Source: Lignipirellula cremea (lineage in GTDB: Bacteria; Planctomycetota; Planctomycetia; Pirellulales; Pirellulaceae). From it: 64,000 bases of DNA. The notes under the pieces are model-generated. The model saw nothing but the letters and a program-made list of their open reading frames with translations. It ran no database searches and had not been told where the DNA came from. The stretch lies in contig NZ_CP036433.1 in NCBI RefSeq assembly GCF_007751035.1, positions 712,437 through 776,436 of the forward strand, written 5' to 3'. Within the stretch, counting starts at the first letter, position 1; each line of letters starts with the position of its first letter. This document shows, piece after piece, positions 13,822 to 57,296 of the stretch. The translations under genes and the position numbers were made by a program.

Positions 13822-13916
13822 GGCGTTCTGCGGAAATTTCCCACCCACAAACGAGACGCCCGTCCTTTTGTGGATATCCTTGGTGATTCTTGTTGAAGCG
13901 GCCGGCCGCCTGCAGG

Positions 13917-13966
13917 TAAAATCATCGCAGGGGCGGCGCCAGTGCGATCGGTCGATCGCACCTTTT
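13917..13966 (+). promoter_or_regulatory. conserved promoter-leader module upstream of paralog P1: TAAAAT box, 19-nt spacer, perfect palindrome GTGCGATCGgtCGATCGCAC, then CTTTT
   Basis: Seen in sequence. The identical architecture recurs upstream of P2 and P4 with exactly the same 19-nt spacing. Confidence 0.6.
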
Positions 13967-13980
13967 GGGCGAGGGAGACC

Positions 13981-15078
13981 ATGCGACGATTCAATTGTTT
14001 TCTTGGTTTGCTGGCGGTCCTGGCGGCCGGGGGTTTCTGCCTGGCGCAACTTCCCCTGGGAAGTTCGCAACAGGAGCCGGCGGCGGTAGTCGCGTCGTCG
14101 CCAGCCGGCGCGAAGGCGATCGCTCCATCGCAGCAGGTCAAATCGCCTGACGCGCTCGTTCAGCCACAAACGTCCAGTCTGGCGATTGCTGTTCCTCCGC
14201 CGGAAGCAGCGGCGGAGGCCGCCATTCGCGCGGCGCTCGACCAGCCTTTTGCCTTCGAAGGTATAGTGACGCCGCTGCACCAGGTGGCTTCTTTCATCCA
14301 GAAAAATCATCAGATCCAGGTGGAAATCGACCGCCCCGCCCTGACTGAAGAAGGCCTCGACCCCAGCATGGAGATCACCTTCCAGGCGAACAACCGCACG
14401 CTGCGGTCTTCGCTGAACCGCATGCTCCAGGGAACGGGACTCGCCTGGTACATTGCCGACGAAACGCTGCTGATCTCCACCCGTGACGAAGTTGAGAGTC
14501 ACCCCGTCACCCGCGTCTATCCGGTGGACGACCTGACGGTTGAAAACGCCACAACGACGAACCGCTACCACGGCTCGCGCTCCTCGTTACGGCCCGCGGA
14601 GTTGATCAACATGATCTCCTCCCTGATTGCCCCCGATTCCTGGGACCCGTACGGCGAATCAGGAGTGATCGAAGGCGCCAGCCTGGGCGGCCGGGAGGTC
14701 CTGTTGGTATCGCAGACCGAAGCGGTGCATGACCAGGTCGCCGAGCTGCTGCGGCAGATTCGAGCGGTCCCGCCAGCGCCGCGGCCGGAAGAGCCGGCAA
14801 CCGACCTGCGCGTCCATCCGCTGTCGGACAATGCGGCCAAAGTCCGGCAAGAGATCATCGACATGGTGCAGCAGACGGTGGAGCCGGAAAGCTGGGAGCA
14901 GCCAGGCATCTTCCTCAAGCCAGCGGCGAGCGTGCTGGTGATCCGCCAGTCCCCTGCCAACCAGCGCAAGATCGAGGAGCTGCTGTCGGAGATCAACATG
15001 CACACCACGCCCTTCGTCTTCCCCACTTTTTCAGGCGATCAAGGCGATGGCGGCGGCATGTCGGGCTCCGACAATTAG
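13981..15078 (+). CDS. secreted STN-domain / secretin-N-like repeat protein, paralog P1
   Basis: Signal peptide. STN-like block (AAIRAALDQPF...ANNRTLRSSLNRML..ETLLIST). Two secretin N1-like blocks (VTRVYPVDDL...LLVSQTEAVHDQVAELLRQIR and LRVHPLS...VLVIRQSPANQRKIEELLSEI). Gly-rich C-terminal tail. No secretin beta-barrel domain. The ORF track starts at a GTG inside the leader palindrome; the ATG at 13981 follows an AGGGAG ribosome-binding site. Confidence 0.7.
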   Translation: MRRFNCFLGLLAVLAAGGFCLAQLPLGSSQQEPAAVVASSPAGAKAIAPSQQVKSPDALVQPQTSSLAIAVPPPEAAAEAAIRAALDQPFAFEGIVTPLHQVASFIQKNHQIQVEIDRPALTEEGLDPSMEITFQANNRTLRSSLNRMLQGTGLAWYIADETLLISTRDEVESHPVTRVYPVDDLTVENATTTNRYHGSRSSLRPAELINMISSLIAPDSWDPYGESGVIEGASLGGREVLLVSQTEAVHDQVAELLRQIRAVPPAPRPEEPATDLRVHPLSDNAAKVRQEIIDMVQQTVEPESWEQPGIFLKPAASVLVIRQSPANQRKIEELLSEINMHTTPFVFPTFSGDQGDGGGMSGSDN

Positions 15079-15145
15079 CGGCGACGAAACTCCCTGCACG
15101 GCGAAACGCCTGGCTTTCCCATTCGCGGGGCCGGTGGTCTGTTGG

Positions 15146-15195
15146 TAGAATGGTTCGCGGGGCTTTACTCGTGCGATCGGGCAATCGCACCTTTT
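15146..15195 (+). promoter_or_regulatory. conserved promoter-leader module upstream of P2: TAGAAT, 19-nt spacer, GTGCGATCGggCAATCGCAC, CTTTT
   Basis: Seen in sequence. Confidence 0.6.
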
Positions 15196-15211
15196 CCGGT
15201 GAGAGCAGGCA

Positions 15212-16204
15212 ATGCAGCGGTTCTTCTTTTCTTTCAGTCTGGCGGTCATCCTGGCCGCGTGCAGCGTGAGTCATGCGCAGCCGCCGTCGCGTTCGCCCAC
15301 GCTTCCGTCCGATCCGCCCGCCACGGTTGCTGAAACGGAAGCCGCCATTCGCGCGGCGTTCGACAAGCCGTTTACGGGTGAGTTCAACGCGACGCCTTTG
15401 TCCGAGGTGGCGAAGCATCTCCAGCAGACGTTTCAGATCAATGTGGACCTGGACCGCAGAGCACTCGACGGCGTGGGCATTGCCGCCGACACGCCGGTCA
15501 CTTTTGCGGCCAACAACCGCACGCTGCGGTCTTCCCTGCGACTGATGCTGCGGGAACTGGAGCTGACCTGGGTCGTCGCCAACGAAACGCTCGTCATTAC
15601 CACCCCCGACGAAGCCGAAGGGCATGTGCTGACGCGGGTTTACCCGGTCGGCGATCTGGCGACGCGGTCAGACGAATCTTCGACGCTGCTCTCCTGGGAA
15701 GCCGGCGGCGGAAAATTTGACGACCTGCGCGATCTGATCACGTCGACGATCGCTCCCGAAATGTGGGCCGATGTTGGCGGTCGCGGCTCGATTTCCGATG
15801 GCGCTTTCCAGGGACGCGACGTACTCATTGTGTCGCAAACCGAAGAGGTCCACGATCAAATCGCCCATCTGTTCCGCCAGATGCGCACGTTCCCGGCAGC
15901 GCCCAGGCCAAAGCAGGCGGAGGCTTCCACCGGGCTGCGGGTGTATCGGTTGACTCCCAAAGCGGCGGAAAAAAAGGAAGAGATCGTCGCCATGCTGCGA
16001 CGTGTGGTCGAGGCGGAGAGCTGGAACCAGAAGGACGTGCAGCTGGAATTTGCAGCCGACGCGCTGGTGATCCGCCAGTCGCGGGAGGCCCATCGTCAGA
16101 TCCAGGATCTGCTGGAAGCACTCGACGCCCTGGCGCCGGTGGTCGTCGATTTCAACGGGTTCGGCGGCCAGCTTCCTGAGGGTCAGGGCGGCAGTTTTTT
16201 CTAG
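15212..16204 (+). CDS. secreted/lipoprotein STN / secretin-N-like repeat protein, paralog P2
   Basis: Signal peptide with an LAAC lipobox-like motif. Same STN + 2x N1-like domain order as P1. Ends ...GQGGSFF. Confidence 0.7.
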   Translation: MQRFFFSFSLAVILAACSVSHAQPPSRSPTLPSDPPATVAETEAAIRAAFDKPFTGEFNATPLSEVAKHLQQTFQINVDLDRRALDGVGIAADTPVTFAANNRTLRSSLRLMLRELELTWVVANETLVITTPDEAEGHVLTRVYPVGDLATRSDESSTLLSWEAGGGKFDDLRDLITSTIAPEMWADVGGRGSISDGAFQGRDVLIVSQTEEVHDQIAHLFRQMRTFPAAPRPKQAEASTGLRVYRLTPKAAEKKEEIVAMLRRVVEAESWNQKDVQLEFAADALVIRQSREAHRQIQDLLEALDALAPVVVDFNGFGGQLPEGQGGSFF

Positions 16205-16242
16205 ACGGCTGTTTGTTCCGTCTTTCAGCAAGGAACGAACTC

Positions 16243-17526
16243 ATGCACAAGCTCCTGCAGGCTGGCGCCCTGGCGGCCTTACTCATGTTCCTGGCGACAA
16301 CGATCGAAGCGGGCGAGACGGATGTCGATTCTGCGCACGCCCGGATACAAGCGGCGCTGAACCAGCCTTTCTCCGGCGATTTCCAGCAGACGCCGTTGGC
16401 GGATGTCGTGCGCAGGATCGCAAAGCAGGCATCGATCCCGGTGCGACTGGAGGAGGAGCCCGCGAACCTTGCCGACAGACCCGTCACCTTCTGGTGTCAT
16501 AAGATGACACTGCGCCACGCGATGGGCCGAATGCTGCACGATCTGGGCCTGGTCTGGCGGCTGCGCGACGGCGCCGTGGTGATTGGTCCGCCGCTAGCGA
16601 CCGACGAAGAGCCGCTCTCAATGCGGATGTACGGCGTGACCGACCTGGTGCGGGACAGCACCGAACCGTACCCTCTGGACCGGCTCGTTGAGGTGATCAC
16701 GCAGATGGTCGACACGCCGTCACAGCAGCTCCGTAACCTGGAGTCCTTGCGCGGCGAGCAGCTGGGCGATCGCTGGATGCTGGTCGTCCATCAGACCGCG
16801 CAGGGCCATCGTGAGACGGCGGCCTTGCTGCAGGGTATCCGCTCGGTTCCTCCGGCGAACAAGCAGGCGGTCCGGCGCCATGACCCGATCTATTATCTCG
16901 AAGGTCCCATCGAAGCGAAGCTACGGGCGGCGCTTGACCAGCCGTTTGTGGAGGATTTCTTCGATACGACTTTGGAGCAGGTTGTGCGGCGGTTGTCGAA
17001 GGCGCACGGTGTCAACATCCTGCTGGACGAGCAGGCGCTGCATGGTATAGGAATTGGGGGCGATGTCCGCATCCGCTTTCCCCTGCAGAAACTCACGCTG
17101 CGATCCGCCTTGAACCGGATCCTGGCGGACCTGGAGCTGACCTGGATGATTCGCGACGAAGCGATCCTGCTCACCACGCCGGACGTCGTTGACGATCACC
17201 AGCAACCGGCCCTGTACGATGTCCACGATCTGGTCACGCCGCCGCCGGCGAACGCCTTCCCTTTGCTTGTGGCGCCGCTGGCGTTGCCCTTAAGCGTGGC
17301 GCCACAGGACGTGAAAGAGGCGATGCTCGACTTTGATCCGCTTGTCGAACTCATCACCAGCACCGTCAGCCCCGACGCCTGGCCGGAAGGCACGGGTCCC
17401 AGTTCCGTCCTCGGGGAAGAATTCGGTGGTCGACGCCTGCTGATCCTGGAGCAGACCGACGAAGTCCACCTGCAGATCGCCGACCTGCTTCGCCAGCTGC
17501 GAGCGGCCCTGGCCGAGGGCCCTTGA
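16243..17526 (+). CDS. secreted STN / secretin-N-like repeat protein, paralog P3, with a duplicated STN-like domain
   Basis: Signal peptide MHKLLQAGALAALLMFLATTIEA. Two STN-like blocks (ARIQAALNQPFSGDFQQTPL... and LRAALDQPFVEDFFDTTL...) followed by an N1-like block (LILEQTDEVHLQIADLLRQLR). AAGGA ribosome-binding site. Sits 38 bp after the P2 stop with no leader module of its own, so it is probably co-transcribed with P2. Confidence 0.65.
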   Translation: MHKLLQAGALAALLMFLATTIEAGETDVDSAHARIQAALNQPFSGDFQQTPLADVVRRIAKQASIPVRLEEEPANLADRPVTFWCHKMTLRHAMGRMLHDLGLVWRLRDGAVVIGPPLATDEEPLSMRMYGVTDLVRDSTEPYPLDRLVEVITQMVDTPSQQLRNLESLRGEQLGDRWMLVVHQTAQGHRETAALLQGIRSVPPANKQAVRRHDPIYYLEGPIEAKLRAALDQPFVEDFFDTTLEQVVRRLSKAHGVNILLDEQALHGIGIGGDVRIRFPLQKLTLRSALNRILADLELTWMIRDEAILLTTPDVVDDHQQPALYDVHDLVTPPPANAFPLLVAPLALPLSVAPQDVKEAMLDFDPLVELITSTVSPDAWPEGTGPSSVLGEEFGGRRLLILEQTDEVHLQIADLLRQLRAALAEGP

Positions 17527-17565
17527 GCGGCCCTTTTCCTGCTCGAAAGCCGGTCGGGTTGGTGC

Positions 17566-17615
17566 TAGAATCGCAGCAGGGGCGTTATGCGTGCGATCGT
17601 CAGACCGCACTTTTC
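17566..17615 (+). promoter_or_regulatory. conserved promoter-leader module upstream of P4: TGcTAGAAT, 19-nt spacer, GTGCGATCGtcaGACCGCAC, TTTTC
   Basis: Seen in sequence. Extended -10-like TGn precedes TAGAAT. Confidence 0.55.
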
Positions 17616-17629
17616 TGTTGAGGTACGTT

Positions 17630-18646
17630 ATGCGGCGGATCTTCTTTTTTCTCAGTTTGCTAGTTGTGTCTTTCATGTGCGGTTCCGGCGGGGCCCAGCC
17701 GGCGGATCGGCCGGAAACCGTAACGCCCAGGGATGTGGGGATTGGTCCGCCGCAATCGGCGGCGGAAAAGGCGATTCGGGCGGCGCTGGAAAAGCCGTAC
17801 ACCGGTCAACTGGAGAATACGCCGTTGCGCAAGGTGATCGGTGCGATTGCCGAAACCTATCAGATTAATGTCGCCCTGGACCACCGGGATCTGGGCGGCG
17901 TTGGCATCGACGGCGACACGCCCGTTTCCTATGCGGGGAACAGCAGTACGCTGCGTTCCGCCCTGAAGCAGATTCTGCAGGAGCTGGAACTGGTCTGGGT
18001 GATTCAGGACGAAACCCTGCTGATCACCACGCCGTATGAAGTGGAGGACATTCTGGTCACACGTCTCTACGAAGTGCAGGATCTGGTCATGGTCCCCAGA
18101 AAGAAGCCGCTGCTGTGGGGACCGGGCGGCCTGGACGCCGATTTCGATACGCTCCAGGAGACGATCACTTCGACCATCGCCCCCGACACGTGGGACGAGG
18201 TGGGCGGCCCCGGCTCCTTCCAAGGCGGCTCCTTTGGCGGACGCTACTTGCTGGTCGTCTCCCAGTCGGAAAGCGTTCATAAACAGATCGCCGATCTGTT
18301 CCAGAGCATGCGAACCGTCCGTCCTCCGGCGCCGGCTGAAGAGAAACCGAGCGACGAAAAGACCACGCTGCATGTCTATAGATTATCGGCCGATGCGGCA
18401 GGCAAGTCGGACGAACTGACGGCCGTGCTCAAAAAGATCGTGGAGCCGGAAAGCTGGCAGCAGCCAGGCGTGCAGCTGGAAGCGGCCGCCGACGCGCTCA
18501 TCATTCGACAGACGCCGGCGGTGCATGAGAGCATCGGGGAACTGCTGCAGGCGATGGGCGCCCTGGCTCCTTCGCTGGATTACTACGACGACGGGGGCAG
18601 AAGCAGAGGGTTCAGCGGGGGAAGCATGGGCTTTGGCTTCCAGTAG
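17630..18646 (+). CDS. secreted STN / secretin-N-like repeat protein, paralog P4
   Basis: Signal peptide. Same domain order as P1/P2 (AIRAALEKPYTGQLENTPL..., VTRLYEVQDL...LLVVSQSESVHKQIADLFQSMR, LHVYRLS...ALIIRQTPAVHESIGELLQAM). The ORF track starts at a GTG inside the leader; the ATG at 17630 is the more likely start. Confidence 0.7.
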   Translation: MRRIFFFLSLLVVSFMCGSGGAQPADRPETVTPRDVGIGPPQSAAEKAIRAALEKPYTGQLENTPLRKVIGAIAETYQINVALDHRDLGGVGIDGDTPVSYAGNSSTLRSALKQILQELELVWVIQDETLLITTPYEVEDILVTRLYEVQDLVMVPRKKPLLWGPGGLDADFDTLQETITSTIAPDTWDEVGGPGSFQGGSFGGRYLLVVSQSESVHKQIADLFQSMRTVRPPAPAEEKPSDEKTTLHVYRLSADAAGKSDELTAVLKKIVEPESWQQPGVQLEAAADALIIRQTPAVHESIGELLQAMGALAPSLDYYDDGGRSRGFSGGSMGFGFQ

Positions 18647-18748
18647 TCCGCAGGACTGAGACGACTTGCCGTCGACTTCCGTCCGTTAGAAGATTCTCGT
18701 TCCCCGCAAACGCGGCGCTGCTTTCGCGGAGAGAAAGGCGACTTTCAA

Positions 18749-20008
18749 TTACCGGAGCGGACTCCACACAGGCGCTTTGGCCTCTTTCACTTCCGGCTGG
18801 GACAGGCCCGGCGGCGGAGCGAGTAGTTGTTCGGCCGGGGGCGTCGGTTGCGCGGCCGGCAAGGCGGCCGGTTCTTGCACCAGGACCGACGCGGTCCTCG
18901 GAGACGCGGCTGCTGGTACGGGCGATGCAGCCGCTGGTAGCGGCTGGCCGGGGGCTCCAGGGAAGAGCGCGGCGGTCGGCAACGGGGTGACGGCGGAAGC
19001 CGGCTGCGTCTGGCCGTGGAACGGTGAACTGGGCGGCAAGTAGACGTCGTCGACGCCGGGTCGCGGCATCCAGCGGACCGAAGGACTGCCCGGCAAGGCG
19101 ATCGCCATGTCGAAGCGTGTTTCCAGCTGGCGCTGATCGTCGGTTTCAAATCGCAGGAACACGGCAAGGTCTTTCCCGTGAGGCGGATCGGCTGGCCAGG
19201 GCAGGTGCAAATGCACGCCGCGGCCGCGGAACGGATCCAGACGCAGCCGCTGCTCGATCTCGCTGGCTTCAAAATCCCAACGGGCCACGCGGGCCGCTTC
19301 CCCTTCCTGGCTGCGGTCCAGTACGACCACGCTCATGGAGCCCGGCGTCGGCACAAACAGGTCGTCGGCGTTGCGCGGCTCGATCACCAGGGCAAGCCCG
19401 TCATCACCGGCGCGGCGATCAAAGTCATGGCCGCCGCTGAGGCGTTTGTTGACCACGATATGCGTCACCCTGCGGTCGGTCGGCAAGGGCGCCGGTTTGG
19501 CGTCAACCTGCGACAGTTGCGGGGCCGGGATCAGTTCCGGTTCGCCGCGTCCGTCGTTCAGATTAGGGCCCAGGCCGTCGAGCACGTCGGGGCCGACCGG
19601 TTTCCCTTTATCGATATCGGGTCCGCGCAGATCGGGGGCCGGTACGGGACGGGTTGGTTCGGGTCGAGTCGGCTGGGGGCGGACCGGGGAAAGGTCGGGC
19701 AGCTCTTCTTCAAACGGAGTCTGGTCGGGGATGGTGATGTTGGGCGCGACGGCGGGAGGAGGATCGGCGGCCGGGGTCGGCTCGGCGGCGGTCCCTTTTT
19801 TGGCGACGGATTTCTCCAGCCGGGCCAGGCGTTCGTCCCGCAGCTTGACCTCGTACTCCATCTGATAGACGCGGTCTTCCAGAATGCGTTTTTCGGCGTT
19901 AACCGCTTCGATATAGAGGTCGCGTTTGGGGTCGCTCTTGCAACCGCAAAGCGCAGCGCAACTCCACAGAGCGGCGAACAACGCAAAACGGTACTGGTGA
20001 GCGGCCAT
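18749..20008 (-). CDS. proline-rich putative lipoprotein
   Basis: Signal peptide with Cys (FAALWSCAALCGC). Short coiled-coil, long Pro-rich low-complexity stretches, and a C-terminal globular region. Confidence 0.5.
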   Translation of the reverse strand: MAAHQYRFALFAALWSCAALCGCKSDPKRDLYIEAVNAEKRILEDRVYQMEYEVKLRDERLARLEKSVAKKGTAAEPTPAADPPPAVAPNITIPDQTPFEEELPDLSPVRPQPTRPEPTRPVPAPDLRGPDIDKGKPVGPDVLDGLGPNLNDGRGEPELIPAPQLSQVDAKPAPLPTDRRVTHIVVNKRLSGGHDFDRRAGDDGLALVIEPRNADDLFVPTPGSMSVVVLDRSQEGEAARVARWDFEASEIEQRLRLDPFRGRGVHLHLPWPADPPHGKDLAVFLRFETDDQRQLETRFDMAIALPGSPSVRWMPRPGVDDVYLPPSSPFHGQTQPASAVTPLPTAALFPGAPGQPLPAAASPVPAAASPRTASVLVQEPAALPAAQPTPPAEQLLAPPPGLSQPEVKEAKAPVWSPLR

Positions 20009-20239: not shown

Positions 20240-20440
20240 TTAACCGTGTTCCATACTCTGGGTGGGATCGACGGACGGGGGCTGGCGATTGGGGTCCTGC
20301 AGTTCGGCCCGCACCACGACCGCTCCGGGAGCCGTTTCGACTCCCAGACGCACGCCTGTGCTGGTTACCCGGACGACGGTGATCTGAATCTCATCGCCGA
20401 TTTGAATTCGCTCACCAACTTTGCGGCTGAGTACAAGCAT
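20240..20440 (-). CDS. csrA: carbon storage regulator CsrA homologue
   Basis: 66 aa MLVLSRKVGERIQIGDEIQITVVRVTSTGVRLGVETAPGAVVVRAEL matches the CsrA/RsmA consensus (MLILTRRVGE..I.IGD.I.V.VL...G..VRLG..AP..V.V.R.E). The ORF track extends it upstream spuriously. Confidence 0.75.
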   Translation of the reverse strand: MLVLSRKVGERIQIGDEIQITVVRVTSTGVRLGVETAPGAVVVRAELQDPNRQPPSVDPTQSMEHG

Positions 20441-20697
20441 TGTCGCCACACATAAAAAGAGGTGGAGGACCATCGCCAGATACAAAGTGACAGCGACAGT
20501 AGCGACCGCTGGTAAAGATAGCACTCCGCCAGGCCGGGAACAAGAGCTGAGCCTGGCCCGCTGGCAGTCGCGCGTTTTCAACCTGTCGCCGGAACGCAAG
20601 TTACGACGCTGAAAATTCCGTCACGGCGAACCTGTTGCGGCCCGTTTGCTCTACAATGGCGTCCTCTCAATTCCCTCCTTTCTGACATGCCCAAGCC

Positions 20698-33932: not shown

Positions 33933-34006
33933 TACCCAGAGCAGGGATCGAACCTGCATCCTCTCGGGTTTAAACCGAGTCGCTCTTCCGGTTGGCGCAC
34001 CTGGGC
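33933..34006 (-). tRNA. atypical class-I tRNA with UAA anticodon
   Basis: Acceptor GCCCAGG/TCTGGGT with G.U pairs at both ends. 3-bp D-stem. Anticodon arm CTCGG-TTTAAAC-CCGAG. 5-nt variable loop. T-arm GCAGG-TTCGATC-CCTGC. Discriminator A. A class-I scaffold with a Leu anticodon is noncanonical. Confidence 0.4.
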
Positions 34007-34014
34007 ATGAAAAG

Positions 34015-34086
34015 TAGTCCCGGATGGAATCGAACCATCGTATCCTGGATGTGAACCAGGCGTCGTCGCCGTTGGACCACGGGACT
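34015..34086 (-). tRNA. tRNA-Val(CAC)
   Basis: Perfect acceptor AGTCCCG/CGGGACT. Anticodon arm CCTGG-TTCACAT-CCAGG. T-arm GATGG-TTCGATT-CCATC. Confidence 0.7.
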
Positions 34087-34241
34087 GTTTCTGTTCCTGC
34101 ACTTCTTTCTAGTGCTGCGTCAAGGCAAAGAGTTCGGGTTCTTCCAATTAGCCGTTTTGGCGATAGCCACGGTTAACTAAAAGGAACAGCGGCTCGCGCG
34201 AAAATGGCCAAACCTGAAATGGAAACTTGACGCACCACTAG

Positions 34242-34312
34242 TGGACCTGCCGGGAGTCGCACCCGGATCTCCGGCCTGCGACGCCGGCGTCTTCCTGTTG
34301 GACGATAGGCCC
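34242..34312 (-). tRNA. tRNA-Ala(CGC)-like with G3.U70, atypical T-loop
   Basis: Acceptor GGGCCTA/CAGGTCC carries a G3.U70 wobble, the Ala identity element. Anticodon arm CCGGC-GTCGCAG-GCCGG. T-arm CCGGG-TGCGACT-CCCGG with G at position 55. Short D-loop. Confidence 0.45.
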
Positions 34313-34338
34313 ATTTTTTGAGCGATCTCGCTCAAGGC

Positions 34339-34409
34339 ATGCCCCCAAGGACTTGAACCCTGACAAACTGGGTTGGAACCAGCCGTGCTGCCAATTACAC
34401 CAGGGACAC
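34339..34409 (-). tRNA. tRNA-Trp(CCA)-like, acceptor top unpaired (possible pseudogene)
   Basis: D-arm GTGT-AATTGGCA-GCAC. Anticodon arm GCTGG-TTCCAAC-CCAGT (anticodon CCA). T-arm CAGGG-TTCAAGT-CCTTG. Only 4 of 7 acceptor pairs form (5' GTGTCCC against 3' GGGGGCA). Confidence 0.4.
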
Positions 34410-34425
34410 ACAAAACTTTCCTCAG

Positions 34426-34510
34426 CGGAAGCCGTGAGACTCGAACTCACAAGCGGCTTTCGCCGCCGCCTGTTTTCAAGACAGGGTCCTCATCCGGCCG
34501 GATGGCTTCC
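34426..34510 (-). tRNA. tRNA-Ser(UGA)
   Basis: Perfect acceptor GGAAGCC/GGCTTCC. Anticodon arm CCTGT-CTTGAAA-ACAGG. Long variable arm. T-arm GTGAG-TTCGAGT-CTCAC. Discriminator G. Confidence 0.75.
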
Positions 34511-34525
34511 TTCATGTTCTGCAAG

Positions 34526-34600
34526 CTGCGGGAGTTGGAATCGAACCAACGACCTCCTGGTTCAGAGCCAGGCATCACTACCAACAGCAACTATCCCGCA
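34526..34600 (-). tRNA. tRNA-Gln(CUG)
   Basis: U1-A72 acceptor TGCGGGA/TCCCGCA, typical of bacterial Gln. Anticodon loop CTCTGAA. T-arm GTTGG-TTCGATT-CCAAC. Confidence 0.75.
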
Positions 34601-34649
34601 TTGTTTCTTTTATGACTTCTACCTCAAGTTCTCCTCGCGACCTGTGGAG

Positions 34650-34724
34650 CTGCGGGAGCAGGAATCGAACCTGCGACCTCCTGGTTCAAAGCCAGGCATC
34701 ACTACCAGCAGCGACTGTCCCGCA
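34650..34724 (-). tRNA. tRNA-Gln(UUG)
   Basis: Near-duplicate of the Gln(CUG) gene. Anticodon loop CTTTGAA. T-arm GCAGG-TTCGATT-CCTGC. Confidence 0.75.
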
Positions 34725-34750
34725 TTGGACGATGGCTATATCACTTTGAA

Positions 34751-34822
34751 AGGGACGGGCGGGACTCGAACCCGCGCGAGGACGCTTAACAGACGTCTGC
34801 TCTGCCGCTGAGCTACCGACCC
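34751..34822 (-). tRNA. tRNA-Asn(GUU)
   Basis: D-arm TAGCTC-AGCGGCA-GAGC. Anticodon arm GACGT-CTGTTAA-GCGTC. T-arm GCGGG-TTCGAGT-CCCGC. One T.T mismatch in the acceptor. Confidence 0.65.
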
Positions 34823-34837
34823 GGCATGCCTGTAAAG

Positions 34838-34909
34838 AGTGTTCTGCGGGAGTCGAACCCGCCTCGCCAGGTTGGAAGCCTGGAGCCTTTGCCGCTCGGC
34901 CAAGAACAC
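34838..34909 (-). tRNA. tRNA-Gly(UCC)
   Basis: Perfect acceptor GTGTTCT/AGAACAC. Anticodon arm CCAGG-CTTCCAA-CCTGG. T-arm GCGGG-TTCGACT-CCCGC. Confidence 0.7.
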
Positions 34910-34961
34910 ATTTTTTGTATCTATCAATATCGGCGCCTGCCATTCCATGACACACGTTTAG

Positions 34962-35046
34962 CGGAAGGAGAGGGAGTCGAACCCCCAAGGCTGTGAAGCT
35001 CACCCCGGTTCGAGCGGGGCGCCGTCGCCCATCGGCTGGCCCTTCC
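34962..35046 (-). tRNA. tRNA-Ser(CGA)
   Basis: Acceptor GGAAGGG/TCCTTCC. Anticodon arm CCCCG-CTCGAAC-CGGGG. Long variable arm. T-arm GGGGG-TTCGACT-CCCTC. Discriminator G. Confidence 0.7.
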
Positions 35047-35073
35047 ATACAAAGCAACGCTACTTTCGCGGAG

Positions 35074-44174: not shown

Positions 44175-47100
44175 ATGAAACCTATCGTCGTCCGGCGAAT
44201 GATCCTCCCGCTGGCATGGCTGTTCGCCCTGTCTCCCGTCCTCGCCCCGGCCGCGTCGCCGGAGCAGCTGGATTTCTTTGAGAAGAAGATTCGGCCCGTG
44301 CTGGTGCAGCACTGCCATGCGTGCCACAACAGCCAGGGGAAAAAGAAGGGCGGCCTGGCTGTCGATCATCGAGCCGCCCTGCTGGCCGGCGGGGATTCCG
44401 GCGCGGCGATCGTCGCCGGCAAACCGAAAGAAAGCCTGCTGATCCAGGCGCTGCGGCACGAAGGCGGCTACGAAATGCCAGCCCAGGCTCCGCCGCTGGC
44501 GCAGGCCGTGATCCGCGACTTCGAACGCTGGGTCAGCGATGGCGCAGCGGATCCCCGTGTCGATCCGCCGCCAGCAGGCGCCGTCGTGCAGGCCGCGCCG
44601 TGGGAGCAGTTGCGGGAAGAACGGAAGCAGTGGTGGGCCTTCCAGCCGCTGCGCGACGTGGCTCCGCCCCAGGTCGACAACGCCGACTGGTCGCACACCG
44701 CGATCGACCGGATGCTCTTCGATGCGATGCAGCGACAGGGTTTGACACCGGAAGCAGAAGCGGCGCCGGAGGTCCTGGTCCGGCGGTTGCACCTGGTGCT
44801 GACCGGCCTGCCGCCGCAGCCCGAGGTAATCCAGGCGTACGTCGCGGACCCGACGCCCCAGGCGTATCTCGCGATGGTGGATCGTCTGCTGGCTTCGCCG
44901 GCGTTCGGCGAGCGCTGGGCCCGGCACTGGATGGACTGGTATCGCTATGCCGAATCGCACGGCAGCGAGCGCGACCCCCGTATCCCGTATGCCTCGCAGT
45001 ACCGCGATTACCTGGTCAGGGCGCTCAACGCCGATGTGCCTTACAACCAGTTGCTGCGTGAGCACCTGGCCGGCGACCTGCTGCCGGAGCCGCGTATCAA
45101 CCGGGAGCTGGCGATCAACGAATCGGCCATCGGCCCGGCCCACCTGCGGATGACGCCGCATGGTTTTGGCGTGACCGATGCGTATGGCGAGCAGATCGCC
45201 TTTACCGATAACCAGATCGACGTCCTGTCCAAAGCGATGCTGGGGGTGACCGTCTCTTGCGCCCGTTGCCATCATCATAAATTCGATCCGATCAGTCAGC
45301 AGGACTTTTACCGCTTCTATGGGCTGCTCCTCAGCGCGCGGCCGTCGACCGTGCTGATCGACTCCCCAGAGAAACTGCAGACGAACCGGCAGGCGATGCT
45401 CATGCTCAAGAGCCAGATCCGCGGCGCCCTGGCCGAACACTGGCTGGGCCAGACGAACGACCTGCCGGACTGGCTGGAGAAGAACGCCGCAACGTTCGCC
45501 GAGCAGCGTCATCCGAGCCAGCCGCTGGGAACCTGGACGCTCCTGCAGGACGTTCGGCCCGACGCCTTTGCGGCGCGCGTCGTCGCCCTGCAGAACCAGC
45601 TGCAGCAGCTGCATGAGGCGAACGCCCAGGCGATTGACCAGGCGGCGTTCTATGTCGACCTGCGGGATCCAGCGAGCGCCGATCAGTGGTTCGTCCGTGG
45701 CAACGGCACGGCCGACCGGGTGAGTCCGGCCGGTTCGTTCGCGCTGCATCCGAGCGGCGAGCTGGCGGTTCGCGGCGTCTATCCGCGGGGCATTTATTCG
45801 CATCTGCTCTCCGACAAGCACGCCAGCGTGTTCGGCACCCGCAGCTTCCGCGCCCAGGGCCAAGCGACGCAGGTTCGTATCGCCGGCCGCGATGCGCAGC
45901 TTAAGGTTCCGGTGCGGAATTATCCGCTGACCGCAGGGCTGCATCGGGCCAGCCAGGTGAATCAGGAGCAGCTGGCCTGGGTCCCCACGCAGGAAAAATG
46001 GAAGTACTGGCAAGGCGATTTGGTCCACTACGAGCTTGCCACCGATCCCGACAAACTGCCGCAGGCCGGCAACAAGGAGCGGTCCTGGTTCGGCATCGCC
46101 GAGATCTACGCCGGTGAGCGTCCGCCGCAAGCGACCGGCGGGCCGTTGCTGGAACTGCTCGACGACCCGACGTCCCTGGTCGATCGCACGTCGCTGGGGA
46201 AAGCGTACGCCCGGACGCTTCGTGAGGCCGTGATCGCCTGGCGAGAAGAGCAGATGACCGACGCCCAGGCCGAGTTTCTCGATGCGTTCGTGCAGATCGG
46301 CTTTCTCACCAACCAGACGGCCCGGCTGCCTCCGTCGCTGCGACAGTCGCTGGCTCGGTATCGTGAGTTAGAAAGCCAAATCCCCACGCCAACCAGGGCG
46401 CCTGGCGTGCTGGAAACGGCGCCGGTCGACCAGCCGCTGCTGGTGCGGGGCGATCCACGGCAGGAAGCAGAGCCCGTGCCGCGGCAGTTCCTGGAAGTCT
46501 TCGGCGGCGAACCTTATACGGGCAAGGTTCCGGCCCGGCTGCAGCTGGCGGACGAACTGGTCAGCGAGGCGAACACGTTGAAGACTCGCGTGCTGGTCAA
46601 CCGGCTCTGGGCGTACGTTTTTGGCCGCGGGCTGGCGGCGTCGACCGACAACCTGGGGCGGCTGGGTTCCGCGCCGTCACACCCGGAACTGCTCGACCAT
46701 CTGGCTCTCGACCTGGAGCAGAACGACTGGTCGATCAAAAGGGCGTTGCGGCAAATGACGACCAGCCGCGCGTTCCGTTCCGCCAGCCAGGCGTCTCCCG
46801 CGTCCCGCGAGCAGGATCCGGCCAACGTGTACCTGTCCCATTACACGCCCCGGCGACTCGATGCGGAGGCCATCTATGATTCGGTCCAGCAGCTGGCCGG
46901 CCGCACGGAGCGGGCCCTTTATCTGCCGGTCGTTCGTAATTCGCTCAACCCGTTTTTGACGACCTTCAACGCGCCCGTTCCGTCGTCGACCGTCAGCCAG
47001 CGGACCCACACGAACGTACCGGCGCAGGCGCTGGCGATGATGAACGGCCCCCTGGTCGAAGCCGCCGCGGAAAGCTGGGCCGGTCGCATCCAGCGCGATT

Positions 47101-48224
47101 CCCGTCTGGCGACGCCGTCCCAAAAGATCACCGCTATGGTCTGGCAAGCTTACGGCAGGGCTCCAACCGAAGAGGAGCTGAAACTGCTGCTGGCGTACCA
47201 GGCCGGCGATTTCGACCCGCAGGACGAACTGGCCGAGCGGCTCGCAGAGAAGGACACGGCGACCAGGCGACTGGCCGCATTGCGGCAGGCCCGCGATGCG
47301 GTCCTGGCTCCGGTGCGGCAGCGGCTGCAGGCGGAAGTTGACGAACGGAACGCGGCCCGCCAGGCCGATGCGCCGGCTCCGGTCGACCTTCAGCCGATCG
47401 CCTGGTGGGACTTTGAAAAGGACGCCCGCGATCAGATCGGTCCGATGCACGGCCAGCTGCTGGGAGACGCCCGGATTGAAGACGGCGCCCTGGTGCTGGC
47501 CGGCGGTTGCCTGGTGACGGCCCCGAGCGGGCAGGCCCTGCAGGCGAAGTCGCTGGAGGTGCTGCTGCAGCTGGATCGCCTGGACCAGCGCGGCGGCGGG
47601 GCCATGTCGCTGCAGACGAAAGACGGCCAGGCGTTCGACGCGATCGTCTATGCCGAGCAACGGGCCGCGACCTGGCTGGCCGGCAGCGACTTCTTTCGGC
47701 GCACGCAGCTCCTCACCGGCCCGGCCGAGAAGGAGGCCGTCGATCAGCCGGTGCGACTGCTGTTCGCCTACGACGCTGACGGTACGATTCGCACGTACCG
47801 GAATGGCAAGCCTTACGCGGCTCCGTATCGTAAAGCAGGTCTCCGCCGCTTTCCCCCGGGGGAAGCGCATGTCGCCTTTGGGTTGCGTCATGGATCCGCC
47901 CCTGCGCCCGGCCGGATGCTGACAGGGCGAATCCTGGAAGCGCGGCTGTACGATCGGGCGCTGACGGCCGAAGAAGCGGCCGCCGCCTCGACCGGCCTGC
48001 TGCGGGAAACGGTATCCGAGGCCCAGCTGCTGGCCGCGCTGACGGAAGACCAGCGCCAGGAGCTGGCGCGGCAGGCAGGGCCGCTGGCCGAACAGGAACA
48101 GGCGGTCGCTGAACTGGCTCGCCAGGTGCAGGAACTGCAGGAACGTCAGCGCCGGCCGCAAAGCGATTACTTCGGCGTGGCGCACGCTCTGCTCAACTCC
48201 CAGGAGTTTATCTATGTCGATTAA
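44175..48224 (+). CDS. PSCyt1/PSCyt2(DUF1549)/PSD1(DUF1553) family protein with an inserted LamG-like domain
   Basis: Signal peptide. N-terminal CHACHN. CARCHHHKFDPISQQDFYRFYGLL DUF1549 core. C-terminal DUF1553-like region. Immediately followed by a DUF1501 gene, the typical Planctomycete pair. Confidence 0.75.
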   Translation: MKPIVVRRMILPLAWLFALSPVLAPAASPEQLDFFEKKIRPVLVQHCHACHNSQGKKKGGLAVDHRAALLAGGDSGAAIVAGKPKESLLIQALRHEGGYEMPAQAPPLAQAVIRDFERWVSDGAADPRVDPPPAGAVVQAAPWEQLREERKQWWAFQPLRDVAPPQVDNADWSHTAIDRMLFDAMQRQGLTPEAEAAPEVLVRRLHLVLTGLPPQPEVIQAYVADPTPQAYLAMVDRLLASPAFGERWARHWMDWYRYAESHGSERDPRIPYASQYRDYLVRALNADVPYNQLLREHLAGDLLPEPRINRELAINESAIGPAHLRMTPHGFGVTDAYGEQIAFTDNQIDVLSKAMLGVTVSCARCHHHKFDPISQQDFYRFYGLLLSARPSTVLIDSPEKLQTNRQAMLMLKSQIRGALAEHWLGQTNDLPDWLEKNAATFAEQRHPSQPLGTWTLLQDVRPDAFAARVVALQNQLQQLHEANAQAIDQAAFYVDLRDPASADQWFVRGNGTADRVSPAGSFALHPSGELAVRGVYPRGIYSHLLSDKHASVFGTRSFRAQGQATQVRIAGRDAQLKVPVRNYPLTAGLHRASQVNQEQLAWVPTQEKWKYWQGDLVHYELATDPDKLPQAGNKERSWFGIAEIYAGERPPQATGGPLLELLDDPTSLVDRTSLGKAYARTLREAVIAWREEQMTDAQAEFLDAFVQIGFLTNQTARLPPSLRQSLARYRELESQIPTPTRAPGVLETAPVDQPLLVRGDPRQEAEPVPRQFLEVFGGEPYTGKVPARLQLADELVSEANTLKTRVLVNRLWAYVFGRGLAASTDNLGRLGSAPSHPELLDHLALDLEQNDWSIKRALRQMTTSRAFRSASQASPASREQDPANVYLSHYTPRRLDAEAIYDSVQQLAGRTERALYLPVVRNSLNPFLTTFNAPVPSSTVSQRTHTNVPAQALAMMNGPLVEAAAESWAGRIQRDSRLATPSQKITAMVWQAYGRAPTEEELKLLLAYQAGDFDPQDELAERLAEKDTATRRLAALRQARDAVLAPVRQRLQAEVDERNAARQADAPAPVDLQPIAWWDFEKDARDQIGPMHGQLLGDARIEDGALVLAGGCLVTAPSGQALQAKSLEVLLQLDRLDQRGGGAMSLQTKDGQAFDAIVYAEQRAATWLAGSDFFRRTQLLTGPAEKEAVDQPVRLLFAYDADGTIRTYRNGKPYAAPYRKAGLRRFPPGEAHVAFGLRHGSAPAPGRMLTGRILEARLYDRALTAEEAAAASTGLLRETVSEAQLLAALTEDQRQELARQAGPLAEQEQAVAELARQVQELQERQRRPQSDYFGVAHALLNSQEFIYVD

Positions 48225-49626
48225 CGAACAGAACCGGCGCCGCTTCCTGCAGTACACGTCGGCCGGCGTTAGCGCCTACGCACTGTCGAGCCTGCTCCAT
48301 TCGACCAGGGCGGCGCCGATCGGGCTGCCGCAACTGCATCATCCGGCCAAGGCAAAGTCGGTCATCTTGCTGTATATGTCAGGCGGCGTGTCGCATGTCG
48401 ATTCGTTCGATCCCAAACCCTTGCTCACGCAGATGCAGGGCAAGCCGATGCCCGGCAAGATCGAGCGCACGCAGTTCGACGCCGTGGGGAACATCCTGGG
48501 ATCGCCCTGGAAGACGGACCGCTATGGCCAGTCGGGATTGGAGCTGGCCGGCCTGTTCCCCCGCATCTGCAACCGGGCCGACGACCTTGCCGTGGTCCGC
48601 TCCATGACGGCCAACTTTTCGGAGCATGCCCAGGCGAACTTCTTTCTGCATACGGGCTTTCCCTTTCTGGGCCATCCGAGCGCAGGCGCCTGGATCGCTT
48701 ACGGGCTGGGGGCCGAGAACCCGACCTTGCCGCCGTATGTCGTGCTGCGAACCCAGCAGGCCGGCATCCCGCATGGCGGCGTTAGTATGTTCGGCAACGG
48801 CTTTCTTCCGGCGGCAGCCGGTGGTTCGATCTTCAATCTGTCGGGCCGCAGCGCCGTGCCCAACCTGGCCCCGCGCAGGGCCCAGGCCGAACAACGGGAG
48901 GCGCTGCGACTGCTGAAAACGCTCGATACGCGGTTTGCCGATCGCGTCGCAGCCGAACAGGCGGTAAGGGACTCGGTGAAGAATGCCGAGACAGCCTTTG
49001 CCATGCAACAGGCCGTGCCGGAGCTGACGGATATCTCGGGCGAATCGCAAGCGACGCTGGACCTGTACGGCGTGGAAAGCCAGAACCCGCACACTTCGCA
49101 GTACGCCCGGCAATGCCTGATGGCACGGCGCCTGGTGGAGCGGGGCGTGCGGTGCGTCGAGCTGACCTGCAGTTCCGTCGGCATCGGCCTGGGCGGCGGG
49201 GCAAATCCGTGGGACCAGCACGCCGATATTTTCAAAGGGCACGGAGCAATGGCCGAACAGGTCGATCAACCGATCGCGGCCCTGCTGCAGGATCTGAAAC
49301 AGCGGGACATGCTCGACAGCACGCTGGTCGTTTTCACCGGCGAGTTCGGCCGCACGCCGTTCGCCCAGGGGAACGGCCGCGATCATAACCCGTTCGGCTT
49401 CAGCCTGTGGCTGGCCGGCGGCGGCTTGCGGGGCGGCATGACGCACGGCGCGACGGACGAGTTCGGCTATCACGCCGTCGAACAGCCCGTCACGGTCTAC
49501 GATCTGTGGGCGACCGTGCTGCACCAGCTGGGGATCGATCACGAGCGGTTAACGTACCGCTACAGCGGCCGCGACATGCGTCTCACCGACGTGCACGGTA
49601 ACGTCTGGAAAGAGCTGATCGCTTAA
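48214..49626 (+). CDS. DUF1501 protein (sulfatase-like fold, Tat signal)
   Basis: Twin-arginine signal RRRFLQYTSAGVSAYAL and DUF1501-wide similarity. Confidence 0.8.
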   Translation: MSINEQNRRRFLQYTSAGVSAYALSSLLHSTRAAPIGLPQLHHPAKAKSVILLYMSGGVSHVDSFDPKPLLTQMQGKPMPGKIERTQFDAVGNILGSPWKTDRYGQSGLELAGLFPRICNRADDLAVVRSMTANFSEHAQANFFLHTGFPFLGHPSAGAWIAYGLGAENPTLPPYVVLRTQQAGIPHGGVSMFGNGFLPAAAGGSIFNLSGRSAVPNLAPRRAQAEQREALRLLKTLDTRFADRVAAEQAVRDSVKNAETAFAMQQAVPELTDISGESQATLDLYGVESQNPHTSQYARQCLMARRLVERGVRCVELTCSSVGIGLGGGANPWDQHADIFKGHGAMAEQVDQPIAALLQDLKQRDMLDSTLVVFTGEFGRTPFAQGNGRDHNPFGFSLWLAGGGLRGGMTHGATDEFGYHAVEQPVTVYDLWATVLHQLGIDHERLTYRYSGRDMRLTDVHGNVWKELIA

Positions 49627-54907: not shown

Positions 54908-57232
54908 ATGGAACGATCCCGCGTTACTATCGTCCGCCTGGCAGTCATGCTGGTGCTGGGGCAGGCAGCAGCCGGTGCGGTCGAGCCGCAGGGGTCGGTC
55001 GAAAAAGGTCCGGCCTGGACGGCGACCAGGTTTGAGAAGTTCGTGGGGCAGCACTGCCTCGACTGCCACAGTACGGACGATCCGGCCGGTGACGTGGACC
55101 TGAGCGGACTGGCTGCCGAGGGCGGCCTGAATGGACAGCACTGGCAACGCGCGCTGGCGCAGTTAGCAAGCGGACAGATGCCGCCCGACGATGCGGCGCG
55201 ACCCGCGCTGGCGGACCGGGAAGCGGCCATCGCCTGGCTGGCGTCGACTTTGACGCAGAGCGGACAGACGCCGCATTTTGGCGATGGCCCGTTGCCGCAG
55301 GACGGTAACCTGGTCGACCATGAGCGGTTGTTCAGCGGCCTGCATGCGGGTCCGGCCTTCTCGCCGCCGCGATTCTGGCGGCGGAGCGGACCGCAGTACG
55401 ATGCGCTGATGGAACGGCTGTGGGTCATCCCGCGCTTGCGGTATGAAAAAACGCACACGCGGAACGATCCCGACTGGGCCGCCTACAGTTACAGCCAGCC
55501 GTTCGCCTCGCTGGACCCGAGCCACTTCACCAACTATTCCGGCAGCGTGCACGCCGATGAAGCCGCCTTGCGGGCCCTGCTCGATGCGGGCGGGCAGATC
55601 GCCGAACGGCTGACGTCCGACCAGACGGCCTACGCCAAAGAGCTGCAGCCGCCGCATGCGGTCGGTATCCCCACCATTCGTCGCGGCAGTTCGTGGGAGC
55701 GTTTCAAGCAGGAACCGCCGGCCCGACCGGCCGAGTTCGAGCCGTTCGTCCAGCAGGAACCGCAGCCCCACGCGGAGCAGCAACAGGCGGTCGTGCAGCG
55801 GGTGTTCGCCCTGCTGCTGAACCGGCAGCCCACGTCCGAAGAAGCAGATCGCTATGGCGAGTTTCTGCGCCGAGGAATGGAGAAGAACGGCCCGTTGCCG
55901 GCCCTGAAAGGGCTGATCACGGCGGTGATGGTGAGCCCGGAGTTTGTCTTCCGGATGGAAGTCGGCATGAGCCCGCCCGACGAACATGGCCGCCGGAGGT
56001 TATCCCCGTCGGAACTGGCGTATGCGATCGGATACGCCCTGACCGACGCCGGCCCCGACGCCGAAATCTGGGAAGCGGTCGAGTCCGGCCGGCTGCAGAC
56101 GAAAGCCGATGTGGCCCGCCAGGTGCAACGTCTGTTGGCGGACGATCGGATCGAGAAGCAGCGGAAGCTGCGGTTCTTCCAGGAGTTCTTCGGCTACCCC
56201 CAGGCGGTCGATGTCTTCAAAGACCAGGGCGGCTGGCCGCTTGAGGTGCAGTACCTGGTCCGCGACGCCGACATGCTGGTGGAGCACGTGCTGCGGCAGG
56301 ATAAAGATGTGTTTGCCCAGCTGCTCACGACCGATCGGTACTTTGTGGCTTACCCCTACATTCCTGACCCGGAACTGTTCGAGGCTATCATCGCGTCAAC
56401 GCGGGAAGAGACCCAGGAAAGCATGGCCCGCCAGAAACAACGCGGCCGTTCTGTCGGGCCTGATCCGCAAGGCAAATACAACCGGGCCTGGGCCCTCACG
56501 CAAGGCCGGGAGCTGATTCCGCGGACCGTGCATAACGATCGCGGCTCGGCCGAAATGTCGTACATCCGCATCTATGGGATCGACGGGAATACGTTCTCCT
56601 GGACGAAGAACCAGCCGATCGCCGTGCCTGGTCGCCGGGCCGGCATCCTGACGCATCCAGCCTGGCTGGCGGCCCATTCGACCGCGTTTGATAACAGCGT
56701 GGTCGGCCGCGGCCATTGGATTCGTGAGAACCTGCTGGCGGGCAAGATCCCCAACGTGCCGATTGATGTCGAAGCCCAGTTGCCGGACGAACCGAACAGC
56801 ACGCTCCGCGAACGGATGCGGGCGACCCGGGCCGAGCGCTGCGTTCGCTGCCATCGCCAGATGGATCCGCTTGGTTTCCCGTTCGAGATCTACGACCACT
56901 GGGGTCAGTTCCGCGAACAGGAAATGGTCGGTCAGAAGAAGAACATGCCCAAAGAGATCAACCCGCAAGGAGCCATTCTGGCCAGCGGCGATCCGGCGCT
57001 TGATGGCCCGGTCGACGATGCGATTGACCTGGTGCAGCGGCTGGCCCAGTCGCCGCGGGTGCGGCAGTCGATGATCCGGCATGCGTTCCGTTACTGGATG
57101 GGGCGGAATGAAATGCTCAGCGACGCCCCGACATTGCTGGCGGCCGATCGGGCATATCTGGATAGCGGCGGCAGCTTCAACGCCGTGATTGTTTCGCTGC
57201 TGACGTCGGACTCGTTCCTGTATCGCAAGTGA
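54908..57232 (+). CDS. DUF1592/DUF1595/DUF1587/DUF1585/DUF1588-type protein with a cytochrome-like CxxCH
   Basis: Signal peptide, CLDCHSTDDPAGDVDLSGL. C-terminal ..RHAFRYWMGRNEMLSDAPTLLAADRAYLDSGGSFNAVIVSLLTSDSFLYRK. Followed by a DUF1552 gene, the typical Planctomycete pair. Confidence 0.7.
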   Translation: MERSRVTIVRLAVMLVLGQAAAGAVEPQGSVEKGPAWTATRFEKFVGQHCLDCHSTDDPAGDVDLSGLAAEGGLNGQHWQRALAQLASGQMPPDDAARPALADREAAIAWLASTLTQSGQTPHFGDGPLPQDGNLVDHERLFSGLHAGPAFSPPRFWRRSGPQYDALMERLWVIPRLRYEKTHTRNDPDWAAYSYSQPFASLDPSHFTNYSGSVHADEAALRALLDAGGQIAERLTSDQTAYAKELQPPHAVGIPTIRRGSSWERFKQEPPARPAEFEPFVQQEPQPHAEQQQAVVQRVFALLLNRQPTSEEADRYGEFLRRGMEKNGPLPALKGLITAVMVSPEFVFRMEVGMSPPDEHGRRRLSPSELAYAIGYALTDAGPDAEIWEAVESGRLQTKADVARQVQRLLADDRIEKQRKLRFFQEFFGYPQAVDVFKDQGGWPLEVQYLVRDADMLVEHVLRQDKDVFAQLLTTDRYFVAYPYIPDPELFEAIIASTREETQESMARQKQRGRSVGPDPQGKYNRAWALTQGRELIPRTVHNDRGSAEMSYIRIYGIDGNTFSWTKNQPIAVPGRRAGILTHPAWLAAHSTAFDNSVVGRGHWIRENLLAGKIPNVPIDVEAQLPDEPNSTLRERMRATRAERCVRCHRQMDPLGFPFEIYDHWGQFREQEMVGQKKNMPKEINPQGAILASGDPALDGPVDDAIDLVQRLAQSPRVRQSMIRHAFRYWMGRNEMLSDAPTLLAADRAYLDSGGSFNAVIVSLLTSDSFLYRK

Positions 57233-57296
57233 CGGCTGACTTGTTGAGGATCGCGTCCTTCCTGGAATTCACGTTATCGAAGCGGAGTAAAACGGC

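Follow-up and report, generated by a model that had tools for sequence, protein, structure and literature searches.

Four adjacent plus-strand genes of the planctomycete Lignipirellula cremea, P1 to P4, encode exported proteins built from the kind of small modules that precede the pore in secretins, and no pore domain follows them. The genes lie in a 64,000-nucleotide stretch of contig NZ_CP036433.1 (positions 712,437 to 776,436; hereafter the window, from whose first nucleotide all coordinates are counted) and form an array that appears to be the product of tandem duplication within a very large Planctomycetota family, here called the STN+N1 family. Our preferred reading, to which we give an even chance, is that P1–P4 are exported, pore-less adaptors or scaffolds of the cell envelope in which a C-terminal cap module, together with a Gly-rich tail whose last residue is Phe, acts as a docking or sorting element.

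Modular Architecture of the Array

P1–P4 share 34–48% pairwise identity, evidently far beyond chance, and match a family profile built from 39 members with E-values of 1.3e-89 (P1) to 1.5e-101 (2.2e-93 for P4). These values confirm what a first-pass annotation, made by reading the DNA, had described as four adjacent plus-strand paralogs; a six-frame translation of the 64 kb contains no other match to the profile. P1, P2, and P4 are one another's closest relatives, and since P2 is nearer to P1 (44% identity) than to its best match outside the array (37%), the tandem duplication appears to be local and old.

P1 spans 13981–15078 (365 aa), P2 15212–16204 (330 aa, 100% identical to an L. cremea database protein), P3 16213–17526 (437 aa if translation begins at TTG 16213, 427 aa if it begins at ATG 16243), and P4 17630–18646 (338 aa), with gaps of 133 nt between P1 and P2, 8–38 nt between P2 and P3, and 64–103 nt between P3 and P4. 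The gene limits first assigned to P1 and P4 had to be revised: their longest open reading frames (ORFs) begin at GTG 13942 and GTG 17591, which are not the true starts. The internal ATG at 13981 is backed by an NCBI gene model (P0006) and by the conserved upstream alignment described below, and the ATG at 17630 by the conserved upstream element alone; conservation of this element fixes both start codons.

Each protein begins with a hydrophobic signal sequence, as do 170 of 197 sampled family members, followed by an Ala-Gln or Ala-Gly site resembling a signal-peptidase I site (cleavage marked by a slash): MRRFNCFLGLLAVLAAGGFCLA/Q in P1, SHA/Q (an AxA-type site) in P2, ...FLATTIEA/GE in P3, and MRRIFFFLSLLVVSFMCGSGGA/Q in P4. 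The LAAC lipobox-like motif reported earlier in P2 is indeed there, at 18.4 bits against LPAM_1, under the cutoff of 20.

Behind the signal peptide, P1, P2, and P4 share an STN/N0 domain (14203–14496, 15320–15619, and 17753–18046, respectively), an N1-like module (14500–14772, 15623–15895, and 18050–18328), a second N1-like module that we call the cap (14800–14997, 15929–16126, and 18362–18559), and a Gly-rich tail (14998–15075, ending GGGMSGSDN; 16127–16201, ending GQGGSFF; and 18560–18643, ending SMGFGFQ). The domain order and Gly-rich tail that the first-pass annotation attributed to all four proteins thus hold for these three but not for P3, which consists of two STN+N1 units (16324–16860 and 16849–17517; independent E-values of 8.3e-34 and 1.7e-67 with the family hidden Markov model, HMM) and has neither a third module nor a Gly tail.

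The identity of the modules emerges at the level of the family. Taken singly, P1–P4 score 13–19 bits against Pfam STN, 12–20 against Secretin_N, and at most 20 against FecR_C, for which gathering scores are 24–28, and NCBIfam yields no meaningful match for them. Among 39 family members, by contrast, STN matches 15 (best E 1.4e-7), Secretin_N 9 (best E 1.6e-5), and FecR_C 8, and multi-repeat members exceed the gathering scores, reaching 67.5 bits for STN, 37.2 for Secretin_N, and 58.3 for FecR_C. The Pfam check proposed at first pass stays below threshold for each array protein and exceeds it in their multi-repeat relatives. An AlphaFold2 monomer model of P2 computed with the family alignment (mean predicted local distance difference test score, pLDDT, 82.4) has an STN/N0 α/β domain at residues 37–136 (pLDDT >95), a β-α-β-β-α module with a disordered insert at 138–228, a second β-α-β-β-α module at 240–305, and a disordered Gly-rich tail at 306–330. 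A separate model of residues 137–310 attains a pLDDT of 86.8, the predicted template-modeling scores (pTM) of the models are 0.53–0.63, and modules two and three are mutually homologous (hhalign 98.2%, E 4.8e-14). A sequence-profile search of the PDB was marginal, so fold searches were needed; the matches listed are the GspD N0 domain, DotD, the small lipoprotein of the BfpB-BfpG complex, and phage hub proteins. Family-level Pfam scores above gathering thresholds and the P2 model thus support the assignment, already made at first pass, of an STN/N0 domain followed by secretin-N1-like modules, two of them in P2, with the proviso that secretins are not alone in having this small fold.

Absence of a Pore and of Linked Secretion Genes

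The secretin C-domain (PF00263) has no match in P1–P4 even at E≤10, none in the 39 members of the family alignment (A2), five long family proteins, and the fusion protein P0209, and none in sets of 44 and 34 listed homologs, by scan or precomputed annotation. The P2 model terminates in a small α/β module and a disordered tail, and a barrel would fit neither in the gaps of 8–133 nt nor ahead of the convergent gene that follows P4. Pfam scans of 34 large ORFs across the window reveal no component of a type II, III, or IV secretion system (T2SS, T3SS, T4SS) or of a pilus. They identify transketolase, isochorismatase-family, CsrA, LysRS, cytidylate kinase, penicillin amidase, DDE transposase, PSCyt/PSD/DUF1501, sulfatase, and topoisomerase proteins; the immediate neighbors of the array encode the transketolase, the isochorismatase-family protein, a Pro-rich lipoprotein, CsrA, and LysRS. 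Both absences asserted at first pass, of the barrel and of nearby T2SS or pilus genes, are thereby borne out. P1–P4 likewise have no match to Plug or TonB_dep_Rec, their 330–437 residues being filled by small α/β modules, and none to FecR (PF04773), the only N-terminal elements seen being signal peptides.

The STN+N1 Family

In a library of 1.84 billion representatives of 50%-identity clusters, the family profile matches 35,890 representatives at E≤1e-3, a number that falls to 23,048 at E≤1e-10 and to 9,046 at E≤1e-30. Its top matches are proteins of 440–2,500 aa with 2–9 tandem copies of a ~190-aa STN+N1 unit, whose consensus reads …LRSAL..L…LTW.I.DE.L.ITTP.EAE in the STN part and TRVYPV.DL…ITSTI.P.SWD.VGGPG…VSQT..VH..I..LL..LR in the N1 part. 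Among 197 sampled members the unit occurs 1–9 times per protein, most often four. The family is defined by at least one such unit behind a signal sequence, an arrangement found in each of P1–P4, with two units in P3.

Neither alignment A2 nor a second alignment, A3, contains a stretch conserved enough for a related-locus search, and the taxonomy was instead surveyed in GTDB species genomes by means of a degenerate DNA pattern designed by hand around the motif ITTPEEAE…Y…DL. The pattern matched at least 120 stretches, 120 of 120 of which contain family ORFs, and the 80 record titles listed are nearly all Planctomycetota, among them Pirellulaceae, Thermoguttaceae, Lacipirellulaceae, Planctomycetaceae, Bremerella, Mariniblastus, and Anammoximicrobium; two are titled "bacterium" only. 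One contig of 2,578 nt (L016, CALKYK010000311.1) is binned as Gammaproteobacteria, the sole other named phylum among the matches listed; this contig was most likely misbinned, and horizontal transfer is the less likely explanation. The family thus appears essentially restricted to the Planctomycetota. The first-pass suggestion of an interaction family specific to this lineage was much too narrow for 35,890 cluster representatives that carry 1–9 repeats and are spread across planctomycetal genomes.

Most loci have one family gene within 8 kb, and tandem arrays recur elsewhere (L087, with four two-unit genes, L026, L072, and L112). Arrays in other genomes, intact ORFs, and the 76% column identity upstream of the genes together indicate purifying selection. 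One subgroup (alignment A3: P0020, P0023, P0025, P0026, P0027, and P0029) has a single unit, lacks the cap, and ends in a second, distinct signature, W-(Q/R)-x-P-(R/Q)-V-(Y/H)-E.

A terminal Phe is found in 39 of the 197 sampled members, 36 of which end in G-x(0-2)-F, and it is more frequent in proteins with the cap module (20 of 44) than in those without it (19 of 153). Gly- or Gly/Met-rich tails ending GGFF, GGMF, or GxF are present in P0002, P0004, P0021, P0189, P0192, P0018, P0048, P0054, and others, all of low complexity; within the array, P2 fits the signature and P4 nearly fits. We know of no described sorting signal of the Gly-rich…Phe form.

The unit is also fused to other domains. 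Two separate proteins (P0037 and P0209) join an extracytoplasmic function (ECF) sigma factor via a transmembrane (TM) helix to an STN unit, P0167 and P0212 are fusions to BlaR1-type M56 sensors, and P0036 is a fusion to ExbD; leucine-rich repeat (LRR) arrays are present in the BlaR1/M56 fusions. Further partners are SHD1, TPR, HEAT, LRR, PEGA/SecDF-P1-head, serpin, and VWA domains (P0202 is listed, beside the five proteins named above, among the fusions that include the serpin). Such joining to unrelated envelope and signaling domains is what one expects of a portable module for protein-protein interaction, and a membrane-tethered sigma factor with a periplasmic STN unit would look like a FecI-FecR pair in one protein.

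Database names for family members are "hypothetical," "STN domain-containing," "NolW-like domain-containing," and "DUF4974 domain-containing," with wrong automatic labels in places: "Type II secretion system protein D" for P1 and "general secretion pathway protein D" within the family. Because public databases already attach STN and NolW-like labels to such proteins, the domain composition of P1–P4 is not in itself new. Literature searches turned up no description of the family, secretin, TonB, and STN go unmentioned in a 2025 review of the phylum, and no curated NCBIfam model covers the family; the first-pass statement that this is not a described system agrees with these results.

Upstream Elements and Predicted Transcription Units

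An element of ~67 nt lies upstream of P1 (13900–13966), of P2 (15129–15195), and of P4 (17549–17615), always on the plus strand. It was recognized as a repeat family, in a promoter scan, and by alignment. The three copies are 63–70% identical, as conserved as the best coding blocks, with a mean column identity of 76%, and share the order -35-like box, -10 box TAnAAT, GGGGC, inverted repeat, T-run, ribosome-binding site (RBS), and ATG. The P1 copy has a -35-like TTGAAG, a -10 TAAAAT, GGGGC, and a 9-bp inverted repeat with perfect arms (GTGCGATCG-gt-CGATCGCAC) followed by CTTTT, ~15 nt ahead of the RBS and ATG. The P2 copy has a -10 TAGAAT and GTGCGATCGGGCAATCGCAC followed by CTTTT, and the P4 copy a TG-extended -10 TAGAAT and GTGCGATCGTCAGACCGCAC followed by TTTTC. 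With the search pattern applied, the window contains no further copy of the palindrome.

No such element precedes P3. Since P3 starts only 8–38 nt past the P2 stop codon, it is probably cotranscribed with P2, and the predicted promoters imply three separately promoted and similarly controlled transcription units. As DNA, the repeat may serve a dimeric regulator as its operator; as RNA, it may fold into a hairpin of the 5′ leader. The RNA folding energy of the hairpin is not better than that of shuffled sequences (z -0.65 to +0.77) and the element has no Rfam match, results that do not separate the two roles.

Models of Function

In known systems, STN/N0 and N1 domains bind envelope proteins or each other via exposed sheet edges and helices; N0 binds GspC, and secretin N-domains form rings. 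A pairing of STN-containing domains is known from cell-surface signaling, where the CCSSD of PupR, which contains an STN domain, binds the NTSD of PupB, itself of STN fold, at 1:1 (PMC7186176). We propose that P1–P4 are exported by Sec, P2 possibly becoming lipid-anchored, and that, composed solely of secretin/TonB/FecR-type interaction modules (STN/N0 plus one or two of N1 type), they would form no pore. Their modules would instead bind other envelope proteins, plausibly other family members, secretins, or membrane-anchored sensors that carry an STN+N1 unit, making P1–P4 periplasmic adaptors or scaffolds, a reasonable role that the first-pass annotation had also put forward. The cap and the Gly-rich tail with its final Phe may serve as a terminal docking or sorting element, and divergence of the copies to 34–48% identity would diversify partner specificity, with P1, P2, and P4 each keeping its own promoter- and operator-like leader and P3 riding on P2.

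Several observations weigh against the adaptor/scaffold reading. The Pfam matches of P1–P4 themselves stay under the gathering scores, if at consistent positions, and the PDB profile search returned only a marginal match to GspD (5wq7, E 0.074). P1 (…GMSGSDN) has no terminal Phe and P3 no tail, so the tail is not essential for every member. Finally, small family members have no conserved neighbors, as seen in the contexts of P0005 and P0016 and in an all-versus-all clustering of neighbors at 122 loci. At these loci recurrent neighbors (tsaD, ctpA, and htrA) accompany only another subfamily, of 900–1,600 aa with one unit: tsaD and a CtpA-like protease adjoin it at L003, L015, L020, L024, L032, L039, L040, L055, L061, L096, and L097, and an HtrA-like PDZ protease at L030, L042, L058, L063, L067, L069, L080, and L101. 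The neighbor identities were read from the sequences rather than from Pfam scans, and the adjacency, which recurs across many Pirellulales metagenome-assembled genomes, is probably inherited synteny. The idea that the CtpA and HtrA PDZ proteases read the Phe tail, or the hydrophobic C termini of the family, is speculative, the linkage being confined to that other subfamily.

P1–P4 could instead act in signaling, as soluble ligands or modulators of membrane sensors that carry the same STN+N1 unit (the ECF-sigma-TM-STN and BlaR1/M56 proteins), in an STN-STN network like TonB-dependent cell-surface signaling but without a TonB-dependent transducer. FecR_C matches of up to 58 bits across the family, two independent ECF-sigma fusions beside the M56 and ExbD fusions, and the PupR-PupB precedent all speak for this idea. 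[quoted passage not shown] Most Planctomycetes examined have zero or one predicted TonB-dependent receptor, and many lack TonB (PMC3422733), which argues against a canonical cell-surface-signaling role. The long tandem repeats suit a different proposal, that the units oligomerize like secretin N-rings into the periplasmic rings or stacks of planctomycete-specific envelope machines, whose outer-membrane part would be a separate protein that the cap and Phe tail dock to. Crateriform or pilus-associated macromolecule-uptake structures would be candidate machines, their molecular make-up being still described as unknown (PMC12673574). The size of the family, its confinement to the Planctomycetota, and the recurrence of a Gly-rich tail whose Phe could contact a membrane component fit rings or stacks as well, yet no secretin, pilus, or other structural gene is linked, the many divergent paralogs speak against a single conserved machine, and the pTM values suggest flexibly linked domains; we consider it quite improbable.

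Two further readings keep P1–P4 closer to secretins. They might be accessories, binding the N-domains of secretins encoded elsewhere and controlling secretin assembly or gating in the manner of pilotins, BfpG, DotD, or VirB7, or they might be the N-terminal halves of split secretins like rhizobial NolW/RhcC1, as the UniRef label of P2, "NolW-like domain-containing protein," would suggest. Such roles strike us as very improbable, given that the family far outnumbers any plausible count of secretins, that PF00263 occurs in 0 of 34 and 0 of 44 listed homologs, and that no secretin, T2SS, type IV pilus (T4P), T3SS, or T4SS gene is present among the large ORFs of the window or near the inspected homologs; on these grounds we reject the split-secretin version. 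The first-pass annotation had named, as one finding that would overturn it, that P1–P4 are N-terminal fragments of disrupted full-length secretin genes. A superficial likeness to the N-terminal part of secretins and the label "Type II secretion system protein D" on P1 are all that points this way, and we give the idea next to no credence. The ORFs of P1–P4 are intact, each with a signal peptide at one end and defined modules at the other, the intergenic gaps are too small for a barrel domain, the window yields no further match in the six-frame HMM scan, promoter/leader elements are conserved, and thousands of homologs have the same pore-less architecture. The reading of P1–P4 as broken secretins is therefore refuted, and the adaptor/scaffold reading is the one that we carry forward.

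Other Features of the Window

Convergent to P4 lies a gene for a 419-aa Pro-rich protein (18749–20008, minus strand) with a lipoprotein-like N terminus (…ALCGC), which matches no Pfam family and does not belong to the STN+N1 family. A CsrA-family regulator is encoded 1.6 kb downstream of the array (20240–20440, minus strand; Pfam match of 58 bits to residues 54–102 of the ORF 20240–20599). Farther away, a DDE transposase ORF (35255–36574, minus strand; DDE_Tnp_1, DUF772) lies in the region of lowest G+C in the window (34000–38000, 0.577–0.594 versus about 0.63) and probably belongs to an insertion sequence. A 1,284-aa cytochrome c/DUF6797/Laminin_G protein is encoded at 38480–42334 (minus strand), and two planctomycete-typical sets follow on the plus strand: PSCyt1/PSCyt2/PSD1 with DUF1501 (44175–49626), and PSCyt3/PSD2/PSD4/PSD5 with DUF1552 followed by another PSCyt3/PSD2/PSD4 gene (54908–61048).

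Implications

Modules familiar from textbook secretion and signaling systems are reused in the STN+N1 family as a free-standing, repeatable unit outside those contexts. With tens of thousands of cluster representatives, the family ranks by count among the large protein families of the Planctomycetota and is probably a substantial uncharacterized component of their envelopes. The four-gene array is a modest local expansion, individually of limited importance; the family touches broader questions about the planctomycetal envelope, namely, its enlarged periplasm, crateriform structures, polymer uptake, and scarcity of TonB-dependent receptors. Should its members prove to be envelope scaffolds or parts of an STN-STN network, they would offer a concrete, genetically tractable entry point to this envelope.

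Relation to Known Systems

P1–P4 resemble parts of several well-studied systems and coincide with none of them. FecR- and PupR-type regulators (FecR_C/DUF4974; 4m0h, 6ovm) have an anti-sigma domain and a TM segment where P1–P4 have a cleavable signal peptide, and a CJM β-solenoid where P1–P4 have an N1-type module; no sigma or transducer gene is adjacent to the array. TonB-dependent transducers differ in having a plug and a 22-strand barrel. Legionella DotD, Xanthomonas VirB7, and the lipoprotein chain of the BfpB-BfpG complex (9u5s) share the N0 fold with P1–P4; they consist of a single N0 domain and are encoded in the T4SS or type IVb pilus locus that they serve, whereas P1–P4 add N1-type modules, for three to four modules in all, belong to a very large repeat family, and have no machine locus nearby, and a canonical-looking lipobox, itself below the LPAM_1 cutoff, is confined to P2. 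Rhizobial NolW/RhcC1 is the N-terminal part of a split T3SS secretin whose barrel half is encoded in the same cluster. P1–P4 are likewise a secretin N-domain region in a separate polypeptide, as the "NolW-like domain" label on P2 reflects, in a locus that holds neither a barrel partner nor a T3SS cluster. The secretins proper (GspD, PilQ, EscC/InvG, BfpB, and pIV) have the same STN/N0 and N1-type modules, to which P1–P4 bear marginal sequence similarity (the match to GspD 5wq7 noted above). P1–P4 differ from them in lacking the PF00263 barrel and any linkage to T2SS, T4P, or T3SS genes, and their family departs from the secretin plan by repeating the N0+N1 unit one to nine times and by adding a cap module and a Gly-rich…Phe tail.

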